Of a stretch of DNA of 32,000 nt, positions 2,709 through 30,167 are shown piece by piece. Source of the DNA: an uncultured Planctomycetia bacterium (GTDB lineage: Bacteria; Omnitrophota; Gorgyraeia; Duberdicusellales; 4484-171). The notes under the pieces are model-generated. The model saw nothing but the letters and a program-made list of their open reading frames with translations. It was not told the DNA's origin and made no database searches. Position numbers and translations under genes: made by a program. Location of the stretch: positions 30,001 through 62,000 of the forward strand of contig CAZHYN010000006.1 in assembly GCA_964536865.1 (NCBI GenBank), given 5' to 3'. The number at the start of each line of letters is the position of its first letter. The first letter of the stretch is position 1.

Positions 2709-3856
2709 GAGGCTTATGCGGATTAGGGATAGAAAAAAATGTCCTAAAATTTCTTTTAATTTCCTATAATCGCAATAATTTTTTTCCTCTTTATCAAGGA
2801 GAAATTCCTTCCTCTTCCACTGGACTGGTGGAAATCATCAGAGGAAGCATTGATTCTTTAGAGGAGATATTAAGAAGAGAGGAAAAAAAGTATTCTTTAG
2901 GGATAGAGAGAATCTATCTTCGTTTACCTATAAATTTAGCTACAGTAAAGATAATCGAAGATATTGTTCCTCTTTCTTCTTTTGGGAAGAAAATAATTAC
3001 TCGTAAGGTTATAGATTCAGCTAAACAATACATAGAGAATGCAAATTTGGAGTTAAATCATTTCTGTATTCACCATATTATTTTAGAATATAAAGTAGAT
3101 GGGAAGACATATTTTGATTTGCCTCCCAGCTTGGAGAGTCATAAAATGAACGTCAAAAGTTATATTGTTTATACAGAAAGAAAACTGCTTACTCAGCTAA
3201 AAGAAATTTTTGAGAATGTAGGAAGAAAACTTTCAAGGGTAGTATTTGCTCCTATTGGAGATTTAAGTGTAGAATTTGGTAAAAGAGATTATTCTTCATT
3301 GTTGGCTACAGTAAACATAGGGGAAGAAGATACTCTTATTTCACTGTTAGTAGAGAATAGAATTGACTTTAGTGTTTTTAGGTTTGGAAGGGAGGATTTA
3401 ATAAAAGAGATAGAGAGAAGTTTTGCTTTTTCTCCTGGAGTCTCTTCCGAAATTCTTAATTGTTACCTGTCTTTTTCCAGCCCATCCTTTAGTAAAGAGA
3501 TAGTGATAAAAAAGGATGAAGAAAAATATATGAATGTAAGTTTGGAAAGTATAAACTCTACTATTAAGAAAACAATGACGGAGAAGTTGATACAACTCCT
3601 ATCCTTTTTAGAAAGATCCTCCTCCAAGAGTAGAAAGGTTTTATTCTTAGGGAAAGTTCCTTCCCTAAGGGGATTCTATGAATTTATCCAGAAGTGTTTT
3701 CCTACAATAGAGATAGTTATACCTCAATTTAGGTTACCTAATTTAGCTTTATTAGGGGTGATAAAGTATGGAATTAGGAGATTTCTGGAAAATGTTGACT
3801 ATCCTGGTCAATCTGTGTGGAGTAGGCTTCTTCAATTATACAGGGAATACTTTTAA
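2705..3856 (+). CDS. ftsA: Divergent FtsA-like actin-family cell division protein
   Basis: 383 aa in the position after ftsQ with a 4-nt overlap. It has an actin/SHS2-like layout and a C-terminal amphipathic tail (SVWSRLLQLYREYF). Similarity to canonical FtsA is weak by eye. Confidence 0.55.
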   Translation: MRGLCGLGIEKNVLKFLLISYNRNNFFPLYQGEIPSSSTGLVEIIRGSIDSLEEILRREEKKYSLGIERIYLRLPINLATVKIIEDIVPLSSFGKKIITRKVIDSAKQYIENANLELNHFCIHHIILEYKVDGKTYFDLPPSLESHKMNVKSYIVYTERKLLTQLKEIFENVGRKLSRVVFAPIGDLSVEFGKRDYSSLLATVNIGEEDTLISLLVENRIDFSVFRFGREDLIKEIERSFAFSPGVSSEILNCYLSFSSPSFSKEIVIKKDEEKYMNVSLESINSTIKKTMTEKLIQLLSFLERSSSKSRKVLFLGKVPSLRGFYEFIQKCFPTIEIVIPQFRLPNLALLGVIKYGIRRFLENVDYPGQSVWSRLLQLYREYF

Positions 3857-7993: not shown

Positions 7994-8137
7994 TAGATGT
8001 TTATCTATCCCATATCCATATTGATGAGTTAGTATGTTTCCTATTAAAAACAGATCAAGAGGGTCTATTCTGATAAAAAGTTTTATCTTCCCTTTCTTGA
8101 AAAATTTTTAAAATTATGGTTTATATTAAAAGGGAAT

Positions 8138-10813: not shown

Positions 10814-10841
10814 TTGCCTAAATATTTTTCTATGTTATAAT
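10814..10841 (+). promoter_or_regulatory. Putative sigma70 promoter (TTGCCT-N16-TATAAT) driving the tRNA-Phe array
   Basis: The hexamers were read directly. The -10 ends 19 nt before the first tRNA-derived segment (10860). Confidence 0.5.
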
Positions 10842-10859: not shown

Positions 10860-10895
10860 GTGCCGAGGTAGCTCAGGAGGTAGAGCGAGGGACTG
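10860..10895 (+). repeat. Orphan exact copy of the tRNA-Phe 5' half (2 nt of leader + positions 1-34, ending at anticodon G34)
   Basis: A 36-nt perfect direct repeat of 10995-11030 (GTGCCGAGGTAGCTCAGGAGGTAGAGCGAGGGACTG). The sequences diverge immediately after G34. Confidence 0.95.
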
Positions 10896-10896
10896 T

Positions 10897-10944
10897 ATGT
10901 GATCTCCGACGTTAGTCGGAGTTGCCCGAAGGGCAAAATCACAT
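10897..10944 (+). other. Perfect 48-nt three-way junction fused to the orphan tRNA 5' half
   Basis: The 7-bp closing stem ATGTGAT/ATCACAT (10897-10903 / 10938-10944) encloses the hairpins CTCCGAC-GTTA-GTCGGAG and TTGCCC-GAA-GGGCAA. The junction linkers are 0-1 nt. Confidence 0.6.
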
Positions 10945-10996
10945 CCAGTTATTACTTTTGCTTAATCGAAAAACTTTTGATTAAAAATAAAACTGT

Positions 10997-11069
10997 GCCG
11001 AGGTAGCTCAGGAGGTAGAGCGAGGGACTGAAAATCCCTGCGTCGGGGGTTCGACTCCCTCCCTCGGCA
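10997..11069 (+). tRNA. tRNA-Phe (anticodon GAA), CCA not encoded
   Basis: Manual cloverleaf: GCCGAGG/TA/GCTC-AGGAGGTA-GAGC/G/AGGGA-CTGAAAA-TCCCT/GCGTC/GGGGG-TTCGACT-CCCTC/CCTCGGC/A. Confidence 0.92.
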
Positions 11070-11137
11070 CTTTTATCTCTAATTTATAAGTTTATTCTCC
11101 TCTCTGTGCGTCTTTAAGTGTTCCTAGGCAATGTCGG

Positions 11138-11196
11138 ATCCAACATATAAATACTTTGGTTTCACCAAAGGTTGGATACGACTCCCTCCCTCGGCA
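11138..11196 (+). repeat. tRNA-tail unit A: nested stem-loop + exact copy of tRNA-Phe positions 56-73
   Basis: The outer stem is ATCCAAC/GTTGGAT. It is followed by a 9-nt A-rich bulge, the hairpin CTTTGGT-TTC-ACCAAAG, an A, and then CGACTCCCTCCCTCGGCA (11179-11196), which equals 11052-11069 at an offset of +127. Confidence 0.85.
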
Positions 11197-11266
11197 TAGT
11201 TTATCCTCACATTCATTAACTTCTTTTTTAAGCTGGAAGTTAGCTCTGAGACGAAAGTATCGTCGG

Positions 11267-11326
11267 AACAAATAAGGGAAAATCGCCTTTGGCGAATTTG
11301 TTACGACTCCCTCCCTCGGCACTTTT
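11267..11326 (+). repeat. tRNA-tail unit B: nested stem-loop + exact copy of tRNA-Phe positions 56-73 plus 5 nt of 3' flank
   Basis: The outer stem is AACAAAT/ATTTGTT. It is followed by the 9-nt bulge AAGGGAAAA, the hairpin TCGCC-TTT-GGCGA, an A, and then CGACTCCCTCCCTCGGCACTTTT (11304-11326), at +125 from unit A. Confidence 0.85.
11274..11295 (-). terminator. Possible intrinsic terminator for the convergent dgkA operon (the same hairpin as in unit B, read on the minus strand)
   Basis: The minus strand reads TCGCC-AAA-GGCGA followed by TTTTCCCTT. The stem is short (5 bp). Confidence 0.3.
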
Positions 11327-16258: not shown

Positions 16259-16363
16259 AAGTTAACCCAAAATTTGCACCAGAGTTTTGAAAAACTCTCT
16301 AATCATTCAAAATGTTATAGTTTACAGTAAAGCTTTACACCAAAAAGATACAAAGGCAAATTC

Positions 16364-20627: not shown

Positions 20628-20699
20628 GCCGGGATAGCTCAGTGGTAGAGCAGGTGCTTCGTAAGCATCAGGTCGAGAGTTCGAATCTCTCTCCCGGCT
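20628..20699 (+). tRNA. tRNA-Thr (anticodon CGU), CCA not encoded
   Basis: Manual cloverleaf: GCCGGGA/TA/GCTC-AGTGGTA-GAGC/A/GGTGC-TTCGTAA-GCATC/AGGTC/GAGAG-TTCGAAT-CTCTC/TCCCGGC/T. Confidence 0.9.
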
Positions 20700-20724
20700 T
20701 ATAAATAGAGATACCAGATAACTC

Positions 20725-20749
20725 AGAGGTTCAAATCCTCTCTCCGGCT
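20725..20749 (+). pseudogene. Orphan tRNA 3' third (complete T-arm + acceptor 3' strand), non-identical to tRNA-Thr
   Basis: AGAGG-TTCAAAT-CCTCT-CTCCGGC-T lies 26 nt after tRNA-Thr and ends 1 nt before the AAGGAG Shine-Dalgarno of the MFS gene. There is no room upstream for the rest of a tRNA. Confidence 0.6.
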
Positions 20750-29732: not shown

Positions 29733-29809
<77 letters not shown>

Positions 29810-29874
29810 TTTCTATTAATCTTAATCTATGTTATGTAATCTTTATCTCGCTTACTATGCAAAAGCAATTTTGG

Positions 29875-29938
29875 ATGCAATAAATAAAAGACTCCGCCTC
29901 TGGCGGAGATTGCATACAAATCGGCCCCCCGCAACCAT
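29875..29938 (+). repeat. tRNA-tail unit C: nested stem-loop + exact copy of tRNA-fMet positions 56-76 plus 1 nt of flank
   Basis: The outer stem is ATGCAAT/ATTGCAT. It is followed by the 10-nt bulge AAATAAAAGA, the hairpin CTCCGCC-TCT-GGCGGAG, an A, and then CAAATCGGCCCCCCGCAACCAT (29917-29938), which equals 29789-29810 at an offset of +128. Confidence 0.85.
29882..29908 (-). terminator. Intrinsic-terminator-like hairpin + U-tract on the minus strand (the inner hairpin of unit C)
   Basis: The minus strand reads CTCCGCC-AGA-GGCGGAG followed by TCTTTTATTT. No annotated minus-strand gene reads into it. Confidence 0.4.
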
Positions 29939-30012
29939 CTAAATTTCTACCCGAGCTTTAAGAGATACTACTTTTATATTATAGGCGAGCGTAATTTTGA
30001 TGTGATAAATAT

Positions 30013-30049
30013 GTGAACGTTTCAACTTAGGGAAGGTTGCACACAAATC
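30013..30049 (+). repeat. Degenerate third unit (D) of the fMet array
   Basis: GTGAAC...GTTGCAC forms an outer stem with one bulge, followed by A and CAAATC (30044-30049), exactly +127 from unit C. The rest of the tRNA tail is lost and the interior is shortened. Confidence 0.4.
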
Positions 30050-30167
30050 ACTTATCTATAACTCCTCCTTAATATTTTTTTTATCTTGTTGATATTTTTT
30101 AGTTAAGTTAAAGAGAGAGTAAAAAAATATTGCTTTTAATAAAGGATTTTGTTAAAATTTAAACTAA

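Follow-up and report, generated by a model that had tools for sequence, protein, structure and literature searches.

Hairpin-ended cassettes beside the tRNA genes of an Omnitrophota bacterium: a possible undescribed kind of miniature mobile element

The tRNA-fMet locus

The stretch of DNA analysed for this report (32 kb from a bacterium placed in Omnitrophota by exact protein matches and by homologues, referred to below as the window) contains three tRNA genes identified with ARAGORN and Rfam: tRNA-Phe, tRNA-Thr and a tRNA-Met(CAT) at 29733-29809 that exhibits the initiator hallmark, a C1·A72 mismatch. Beside the first and the last of these genes lie short units, here called cassettes, that end in a hairpin followed directly by a partial copy of the neighbouring tRNA gene. 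The ~106-nt cassette looks like an undescribed kind of miniature mobile element rather than a small-RNA gene, and this interpretation is developed below from the window and from loci of related bacteria (about 10-20 kb each), one of which (L006, from the metagenome-assembled genome (MAG) B7_G16) carries a near-identical tRNA-fMet locus. Fold tests used single-stranded DNA energies, with z scores against shuffled sequences. The tRNA-fMet locus is composed as follows.

29733..29809, + strand: tRNA-fMet (CAT) with encoded CCA (ARAGORN; Rfam tRNA, 58.8 bits)
29810..29869, + strand: left part of the intact fMet cassette, AT-rich and without a stable fold (alignment; 55/60 identical to L006)
29870..29916, + strand: fMet hairpin module (strict scan, fold z = -6.4, covariation; 47/47 identical to L006)
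29870-29873, + strand: guide TTTG, pairing with CAAA at 29917-29920
29874, + strand: invariant G of the module, opposite A 29916 (G·A mismatch)
29875-29881 / 29909-29915, + strand: outer stem ATGCAAT / ATTGCAT
29882-29891, + strand: A-rich bulge of the module
29892-29908, + strand: inner hairpin CTCCGCC-TCT-GGCGGAG
29917..29938, + strand: distal 22-nt tail copy, C56 to CCA plus 1 nt (repeat search; 22/22 identical to L006)
29939..30049, + strand: second fMet cassette, decayed (alignment with the first unit; fold z = +0.5)
29996-30006, + strand: decayed guide and stem remnant TTTG-ATGTGAT
30036-30042; 30043; 30044-30049, + strand: decayed 3' stem GTTGCAC; A; CAAATC

The target of the intact cassette is the T loop of tRNA-fMet, where C56 is nucleotide 29789. 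The 22-mer CAAATCGGCCCCCCGCAACCAT that begins there (29789-29810, the proximal tail copy) has an exact second copy at 29917-29938, at an offset of +128, and the distal copy is preceded at 29870-29916 by TTTG-G-ATGCAAT-AAATAAAAGA-CTCCGCC-TCT-GGCGGAG-ATTGCAT-A. As single-stranded DNA this hairpin is predicted to fold with -15.5 kcal/mol (z = -6.4), a value equalled by 0 of 200 shuffles. The exact tail copy at +128, and the nested hairpin and single A that precede it, had all been reported in an initial annotation of the window and are present as described there. The left part of the cassette closes with the motif GCAAAAGCAAT, directly 5' of the guide.

A further, decayed unit that the initial annotation had placed at 30036-30049 is also real, in that its alignment with the intact unit identifies it as a homologue. 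The sequence GTTGCACACAAATC (30036-30049) is the sole other match in the window to ATTGCATACAAATC at no more than 2 mismatches, where 0.26 would be expected by chance, and the alignment of 29939-30066 with 29811-29938 reveals further common sequence, AGC.AATTTTG.ATG..ATAAATA. The stem complementarity of this unit is gone (fold z = +0.5), its identity to the tRNA stops after CAAA(TC), and just its first 33 nt are common to L006. The order of the array is therefore that of an intact proximal cassette followed by a decayed distal one.

The tRNA-Phe locus

Cassettes lie on both sides of tRNA-Phe, the upstream one in inverted orientation.

10860..10895, + strand: exact 36-nt copy of the 5' part of tRNA-Phe (2 leader nt and positions 1-34; 100% identity)
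10896..10994, - strand: inverted cassette upstream of tRNA-Phe (alignment, strict scan; fold -21.8 kcal/mol, z = -9.3)
10949-10892, - strand: its module, ACTG-G-ATGTGAT-[TTGCCC-TTC-GGGCAA][CTCCGAC-TAAC-GTCGGAG]-ATCACAT-A-CAGT
10997..11070, + strand: tRNA-Phe (GAA), without encoded CCA (ARAGORN, Rfam)
11071..11196, + strand: Phe cassette 1 (repeat search, strict scan, fold z = -6.4)
11133-11178, + strand: its module, GTCG-G-ATCCAAC-bulge-CTTTGGT-TTC-ACCAAAG-GTTGGAT-A
11179-11196, + strand: its tail copy, CGACTCCCTCCCTCGGCA
11197..11326, + strand: Phe cassette 2 (repeat search, strict scan, fold z = -4.6)
11262-11303, + strand: its module, GTCG-G-AACAAAT-bulge-TCGCC-TTT-GGCGA-ATTTGTT-A
11304-11321, + strand: its tail copy, with 5 nt of shared trailer

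The two tail copies downstream of tRNA-Phe are found at +127 and +252. Both begin at C56, each after an A, which agrees with an earlier statement that the Phe and fMet fragments start at the same tRNA position behind the same nucleotide. The inverted unit, a fourth in the window, had been overlooked. It adjoins the 36-nt 5'-half copy, which ends at G34 in the anticodon loop, and its CAGT is the antisense of positions 34-31 in that copy.

A strong promoter-like sequence (TTGCCT-16-TATAAT with an extended TG, 10814-10841) precedes the 5'-half copy and not the complete tRNA-Phe gene. It is probably the original promoter, and since it lies where it does, tRNA-Phe is probably transcribed with a leader of ~150 nt that includes the 5'-half copy and the inverted module. 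Two Logan contigs of the source organism, from two samples (L004 and L005), both end at window position 11318, within the distal Phe tail copy; the repeat at this point within the genome is merely 23 nt, which is below the assembler word length, and the shared contig ends may reflect alternative alleles in the population. Further sequence of the source organism (short Logan contigs and the mur cluster) contained no more tRNA loci.

Common architecture and the guide rule

Judged from their sequences, the four window units (one at fMet, two 3' of Phe and one inverted 5' of Phe) are members of one homologous family. Alignment and folding give every module the same order of parts. A motif resembling AAGYAAT comes first and is followed by the 4-nt guide, a single G and the 5' strand of a 7-bp stem; the interior varies, with two hairpins in some units and an A-rich bulge plus one GC hairpin in others; the 3' strand of the stem and an A then lead into the tRNA-derived copy. 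Common to all units is AAGYAAT-N4-G-A...T-A-C, and in all of them the guide can pair with the four nucleotides that open the tRNA copy. The initial annotation was thus mistaken in holding that the loci have no primary sequence in common.

The pairing between guide and copy is Watson-Crick at 4/4 positions in 8/8 modules and involves three different tetranucleotides.

fMet T loop: TTTG:CAAA; window, L006, L025, L117, L060 (4 lineages)
Phe T loop: GTCG:CGAC; two window cassettes, L109 (3 cassettes)
Phe anticodon loop, opposite strand: ACTG:CAGT; inverted window unit

The bases paired with the guide are C56-N59 of the T loop, or their anticodon-loop equivalents on the other strand. Across the 8 distinct modules, which represent 3 target types, at least two Watson-Crick types occur at 10/11 pairs, while neither the G·A mismatch nor the G:C56 pair varies. 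Six of the modules share an identical fold, with z from -4.6 to -9.3. A strict scan of 1.35 Mb (both strands counted) with the pattern N4-GA-S6...S6'-TA-N4' found 0-mismatch matches at tRNA-adjacent units only, namely the four of the window and those of L006/L049/L002, L025 and L109/L110.

The hairpin always adjoins a partial tRNA copy, and it does so in both orientations relative to tRNA transcription. Because the Phe copies lack CCA and one of them includes 5 nt of trailer, the copies derive from the gene and not from the mature tRNA. Between the repeats the cassettes measure about 99-116 nt (~106 nt), and the direct repeats of tRNA sequence that flank them measure 18-36 nt. Each cassette combines a left part that varies with a hairpin module at its right end; no hairpin is common to the left parts, which in GC-richer relatives carry a terminator on the sense strand. 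The only open reading frames between the repeats are artefacts of 27-37 aa, and no tyrosine or serine recombinase gene is found there. In Rfam searches, tRNA was the sole family matched in the window at the gathering threshold, and at E values up to 5 the fMet and Phe loci again matched no other family, RtT included.

Distribution, conservation and breakpoints in related lineages

Relatives were found by scanning a genome collection for fMet tails repeated at about +110 to +140, which yielded L006 and also L025, whose unit has the same outer-stem sequence. A metagenome scan for fMet tails behind a TA junction added L049 and L060; these were the only members of the family among the 73 loci it returned, the others being ordinary partial tRNA fragments. 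L109/L110 carry a Phe cassette whose stem differs and whose interior consists of two hairpins. In viral contigs there were 0 matches to the exact tail with a TA junction, and loose module patterns occurred there at chance level only, none of them before a tRNA tail.

The gene order eno-divIC-tRNAfMet is common to relative loci with and without a cassette.

fMet cassette present: window/L006, L117-119, L025, L060
fMet cassette absent: L113/114, L115/116, L120/121

On an enolase tree the cassette-bearing lineages and the three empty ones are interleaved. Between the window and L006, which are about 90% identical over 7.3 kb, identity varies along the fMet locus in the following way.

Upstream intergenic DNA: 67/73
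tRNA-fMet: 77/77
Cassette left part: 55/60
Module: 47/47
Tail copy: 22/22
Next 20 nt: 12/20

As read from this alignment, the divergence of the left part is that of ordinary intergenic DNA. Beyond the tail copy the homology includes a conserved 15-mer and then ends at window position 29971. The duplication extends past the tRNA end into the trailer or terminator in L117, L109, L060 and L025, and the duplicated trailers have diverged to about 60-80% identity, whereas the tail copies are perfect in every lineage. Since tails are 21/21 and 19/19 identical where the co-duplicated trailers are about 80% identical, a plain target-site duplication followed by neutral decay is excluded. The perfect tails may reflect a fast turnover of cassettes, a constraint on the tail copy, or exchange among close relatives with identical tRNAs.

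Two strain alleles with the same enolase protein provide a breakpoint. L366 resembles L006 in that the remainder of the tail and 556 nt more come after the module; in L365 the module ends in ATTGCAT-A-CAAA and is followed directly by 296 unrelated nt, after which homology returns before a TetR gene. The L365 break sits exactly 3' of the tetranucleotide paired with the guide, and the decayed copy of the window likewise ends after CAAA(TC).

The 296-nt segment of L365 (4408-4703) contains a short frame, running in from the module, with two CxxC pairs (...EECLHCGQ...KCPYCGEE...) that looks, from its sequence, like a zinc ribbon. In a further contig that encodes the same enolase and DivIC (L369, 2163-2250), only the first 9 nt of tRNA-fMet are present and unrelated sequence takes the place of the rest, which could be a rearranged allele or an assembly chimera.

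A tRNA-loop cassette moved by a recombinase

The observations above can be brought together if the cassettes are non-autonomous, tRNA-loop-specific units that are handled by a structure-directed single-strand recombinase or transposase, with a logic like that of IS200/IS605 or of attC sites. We would put the probability of such an interpretation at roughly one half. The enzyme would be a structure-specific one for single-stranded DNA, supplied in trans, that moves the cassette or once moved it. The cut would fall 3' of the tetranucleotide paired with the guide, as at the right end of IS200/IS605, and the reaction would also be close to attC x attI recombination. The left end of the incoming cassette would bring the remainder of the tRNA, often with a terminator; because of this the tRNA gene would be complete after an insertion into its loop, and the insertion harmless. 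The original remainder, displaced, would end up behind the hairpin as the tail copy. New cassettes would enter beside the tRNA, so that older ones are shifted outward and decay. The sequences themselves establish the anatomy, the covariation of guide and target, the use of both orientations, the confinement to tRNA genes, the patchy distribution and the place of the breakpoint, whereas the enzyme, the single-stranded intermediate, the choice of which tail copy is borne by the cassette and any activity at present are matters that we infer.

Several findings argue for this scheme. The units belong to one homologous family of fixed architecture, the guide tracks the target at three sites, the presence of cassettes at the orthologous eno-divIC-tRNAfMet locus is patchy, and the L365 break falls where it would be predicted. 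The covariation within the modules, the contact of hairpin and partial tRNA copy in either orientation, the derivation of the copies from the gene, the precedent of IS608 and the polarity of the fMet array count in its favour as well. The claim in the initial annotation that the fMet unit is more than a chance repeat or a plain terminator is upheld, in that the unit obeys the rules of the tRNA-Phe locus, and the DNA-level function that had been suggested there has become a serious option. No description of such tRNA-loop hairpin cassettes was found in the literature.

A number of points weigh against this interpretation. No transposase or recombinase gene (tnpA or another gene of the Y1 HUH type included) was found in the 32 kb of the window or in the about 10-20 kb covered for each relative. 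Each cassette has a single conserved hairpin, as opposed to one per end in IS200/IS605; its direct repeats are atypical, as IS200/IS605 insertion makes none, and its linker is 1 nt as against 10 nt in IS608. No clean pair of filled and empty sites with identical flanks was found, and no circular junction was seen, so that we infer mobility rather than observe it. Module and tail copy together are 69/69 identical between the window and L006, where the neighbouring non-coding segments are 92% and 60% identical; a simple selfish-element model does not predict such conservation, which hints at a constraint at the level of the host. The presence of a terminator-like feature in 5/7 modules (described below) suggests a role in transcription. 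Lastly, the sample is small, with all 8 distinct modules coming from one phylum.

A more specific version of the same idea is offered as a tentative proposal, less probable than the general one. The units might be undescribed guide-directed mini-cassettes, each with a single hairpin, that home to single-stranded loops of tRNA genes on either strand and cycle via a trans-acting single-strand recombinase. The 4-nt DNA guide beside the structural hairpin would pick the site, and cycling in and out would maintain the match between tail copy and tRNA while producing ordered arrays of decaying copies.

If the recombinase interpretation is correct, the targeting rule would be a simple one, in which a four-base guide next to a hairpin selects its site by pairing with a tetranucleotide of a tRNA gene loop, and the element would spare its host by bringing along the missing part of the gene. 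It would join three themes: guide-directed cleavage as in IS200/IS605, folded-hairpin recombination as at attC, and the restoration of tRNA genes by integrative elements. It would also help to explain the in-register copies of tRNA ends that lie behind tRNA genes in many phyla, among them the tyrT repeats of E. coli, a classic case that is still unexplained. The module provides a sharp search pattern for genome surveys, and the enzyme, if it exists, would amount to a compact and easily reprogrammed system of site-specific insertion, a candidate programmable single-strand DNA integrase.

Comparison with known systems

The cassettes share with the ends of IS200/IS605 elements, with the non-autonomous derivatives of these (PATEs) and with the related REP/RAYT hairpins a subterminal, imperfect hairpin that is recognised by its shape. 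The likeness is closest to IS608, where a 4-nt guide 5' of the hairpin foot pairs with the cleavage tetranucleotide 3' of the hairpin and so sets the target, with the cut made 3' of that tetranucleotide (PMC3201880). The L365 break and the end of the decayed window copy lie at the corresponding place. The differences are also clear. With a linker of only 1 nt, the guide and target of a cassette are joined in one uninterrupted helix whose only mismatch is G·A; similar hairpins at both ends are not encountered, the right-end module alone being conserved; and the 18-36-nt direct repeats of tRNA sequence that flank the units are not a product of peel-and-paste transposition. Such repeats would fit an insertion of the IS200/IS605 type only if the cassette carries the tRNA remainder.

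Like integron cassettes with their attC sites, the units form arrays in which each ends in an imperfect hairpin whose shape is conserved over its sequence, with two paired boxes, an unpaired position between them and a variable terminal structure above. New units apparently enter at the proximal position, and sequence of the neighbouring site completes the hairpin base. The core consensus of attC is RYYYAAC / GTTRRRY. This core is lacking in the cassettes, whose hairpin base (N4/N4') is set by the tRNA loop; moreover, no intI, attI or Pc lies nearby, no gene is contained in the cassettes, and the shared junction is an 18-22-nt tRNA segment, with the site inside the loop of a tRNA gene.

Integrative elements that target tRNA genes, and their integrase-less, cis-mobilisable derivatives, resemble the cassettes in that the element replaces the displaced part of the tRNA and the gene remains intact. 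They too are bounded by direct repeats of the tRNA part distal to the crossover, with the intact gene at one junction; the identity block begins in the T or anticodon loop, and tandem accretion occurs. Sublocation classes of integration within tRNA genes are said to have been distinguished by Williams in 2002. The cassettes differ in their size of about 106 nt, in having neither integrase nor cargo, and in their structured end with a target-matched guide. A case in which the 5' fragment of the tRNA is involved has been described in Archaea (PMC3293823).

The rtT repeats of E. coli tyrT-tyrV (annotated as rttR and tpr) also contain tail copies that start from the T loop in register, with a period of 178 nt, and a structured segment closes right before each tail copy. 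They differ from the cassettes in being near-identical tandem repeats of one sequence without a module of guide, G·A mismatch and stem; they are familiar as RNA, and show no sign of insertion into loops in both orientations. Because at least one defining feature of each of these known families fails, the cassettes are placed in none of them.

Alternative explanations

The E. coli repeats also serve as precedent for the strongest of the competing explanations, one that we nevertheless regard as improbable: that the modules are a structured RNA maintained by the host within the tRNA transcript (in the trailer, or in the leader for the inverted unit), with a function in the processing or regulation of the cognate tRNA and a tail copy kept by selection. 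In E. coli the copies of the tRNA-Tyr 3' end follow tyrV at intervals of 178 nt in a region annotated as the rttR small RNA (sRNA). A host function of this kind would account for the 69/69 identity of module and tail copy between lineages whose flanks are about 90% identical, and for the fact that the tail copies follow the T stem of each lineage (CGGCC, CCGTT, CGGCT, CCGCC); the window, in addition, has no sense-strand terminator between tRNA and module. It sits less well with L025 and L060, in which strong sense-strand terminators separate the two, with the inverted Phe unit, which would show the opposite strand to the tRNA transcript, with the empty locus of three related lineages and with the L365 allele, which keeps the module without the tail. 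There is no Rfam match, RtT included, and just 4 nt of the tail are paired, so that the CCA end is not part of a tRNA-like helix.

Somewhat less probable still is that the units are inert scars without present function or mobility, either the attL/attR arms of integrase-borne islands whose interior has been lost or tandem duplications of the 3' region of tRNA genes. Direct repeats of the 3' or 5' part of a tRNA are a classic signature of integrative elements, and in Caldiarchaeum an element of 1.8 kb that encodes a recombinase is flanked by a tRNA 5' fragment (PMC3293823). Ordinary partial fragments of tRNA-fMet are numerous in metagenomes, the duplication often reaches past the tRNA into a diverged trailer or terminator, and tRNA-Thr of the window is accompanied by a plain diverged fragment of that kind. 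Scars, however, would not be expected to retain, at three target sites and in five lineages, a covarying 12-layer hairpin together with its invariant mismatch and a guide that fits the target. Nor would they be expected to have a uniform size of 100-116 nt, or to stay at 69/69 identity next to diverging flanks. A full-length parent element was not seen, and the scans of viral contigs found none.

The explanation favoured by the initial annotation was a minus-strand transcript, for which the relevant features are listed here.

29882..29908, - strand: terminator-like site, CTCCGCCAGAGGCGGAG then TCTTTTATTT, formed from the inner hairpin and bulge
29978..30006, - strand: promoter-like ATCACA-17-TATAAT (10/12 match), inside the decayed second cassette

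According to this proposal, which we consider unlikely and the least probable of the alternatives weighed here, an autonomous sRNA of ~80-90 nt with its own promoter, 22 nt of antisense to the tRNA and an intrinsic terminator would bind or regulate tRNA-fMet. Part of the arrangement is present. A terminator-like hairpin with a T tract on the strand opposite to the element occurs in 5/7 distinct modules (the fMet module, identical in the window and L006, and those of L117, L109 and Phe units 1 and 2), and we agree that no minus-strand gene that would need a terminator lies upstream. Promoter-like sites precede the antisense segment by about 30-40 nt in both the window and L006, although the two are not homologous in sequence, and the 15-nt block TTTAAGAGATACTAC is conserved at that place in both.

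Against this, promoter-like sites number 4 where 3.2 are expected, which is chance density, and the different, weak site of L006 is one of 2 against 1.7 expected; the homology with L006 ends before the TATAAT box. The window promoter is made from a decayed cassette, its -35 box ATCACA being what the decayed stem strand TGTGAT reads on the opposite strand. A transcript that stopped at the inner hairpin would not include the 3' strands of the outer stem and of the guide helix, which are the parts that covary. The T tract is absent in L025 and in the inverted Phe module, where such a terminator would block the transcription of tRNA-Phe, and the Phe copies, having no CCA, would pair with the mature tRNA short of its end. 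The inverted unit puts the sense 5' half on the equivalent strand, so that the units are not uniformly antisense to the tRNA, and promoter, antisense and terminator do not occur together on one strand in all members. A ~90-nt anti-tRNA RNA of the minus strand is therefore unsupported as the function of the family. The occurrence of the terminator-like feature in 5/7 modules does make a role in blocking antisense transcription into the tRNA gene plausible, and this may be a selected side property of cassettes.

Other candidates were set aside. The primer-binding site of a retroelement, as an antisense of the tRNA 3' end, is ruled out by the Phe copies without CCA, one of which includes gene trailer. 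An orphan guide RNA of the TnpB/IscB type is unlikely, as the hairpin locks up the first 4 guide-equivalent bases, such a guide would target the intact tRNA gene of its own genome and no effector gene was seen. An archaeal bulge-helix-bulge (BHB) intron or split tRNA is ruled out by a 5' copy that ends at 34 and 3' copies that start at 56, which are not complements of one another, and the host is bacterial. Tandem duplication of one unit within the window is ruled out by Phe cassettes 1 and 2, which share the module rules only.

Other tRNA-associated repeats

The third tRNA gene of the window, tRNA-Thr (20628-20699; ARAGORN, Rfam), is followed after 24 nt by a diverged T arm and acceptor 3' strand, CAGAGG-TTCAAAT-CCTCTC-TCCGGCT (20724-20749), without a hairpin module. 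This fragment is absent at the same locus in L107/L113 and L120, and resembles a 3' end displaced from an earlier allele of tRNA-Thr. An intergenic segment of ~100 nt elsewhere in the window (16264-16361) is 85.7% identical to a segment downstream of the L006/L366 fMet cassette (reverse complement of L006, 7541-7637; L366, about 8020-8120); the Logan contig L004 of the source organism ends inside it, at 16352. The segment probably represents a dispersed repeat or else a promoter region that is mobile.

Many other phyla (L007-L033) also have second copies of the 3' end of tRNA-fMet, about 120-160 nt beyond that of the gene itself and behind lineage-specific spacers, there without the Omnitrophota module. 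In Rhizobiales and Sphingomonadales they follow rrn-5S-fMet with a conserved spacer of ~90 nt; in Clostridia they form tandem units in which the tail is paired over 12 bp to a segment 5' of it, in the manner of an acceptor/T minihelix; and Nitrospira and Thermoanaerobaculales have fMet tail copies as well. A Patescibacteria MAG (L027; 4937-5140 and 5233-5480) has three tandem units of 68 nt, each with two GC hairpins and a tail, after tRNA-fMet, and the neighbouring tRNA-Lys has a near-perfect tandem unit of 126 nt composed of terminator, spacer, hairpin and tail. The tRNA-fMet of a Nitrospira (L007, 4706-4917) contains a group I intron (Rfam, 58.5 bits).

Among the Omnitrophota relatives, a motif ...CAGGGTGACAGCGAGGC...GTCAGAGAGACAAAGTCCTTATGA..., which is absent from the window, lies just upstream of different tRNA genes (L108, about 3180-3330 on the - strand; L109, upstream of tRNA-Phe, where it is repeated; L113, 11540-11700; L117, 11530-11686) and may be another tRNA-associated repeat or a leader element. 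One relative (L120, 11553-11627) differs from the window and from the other relatives in that its tRNA-fMet gene does not encode CCA.

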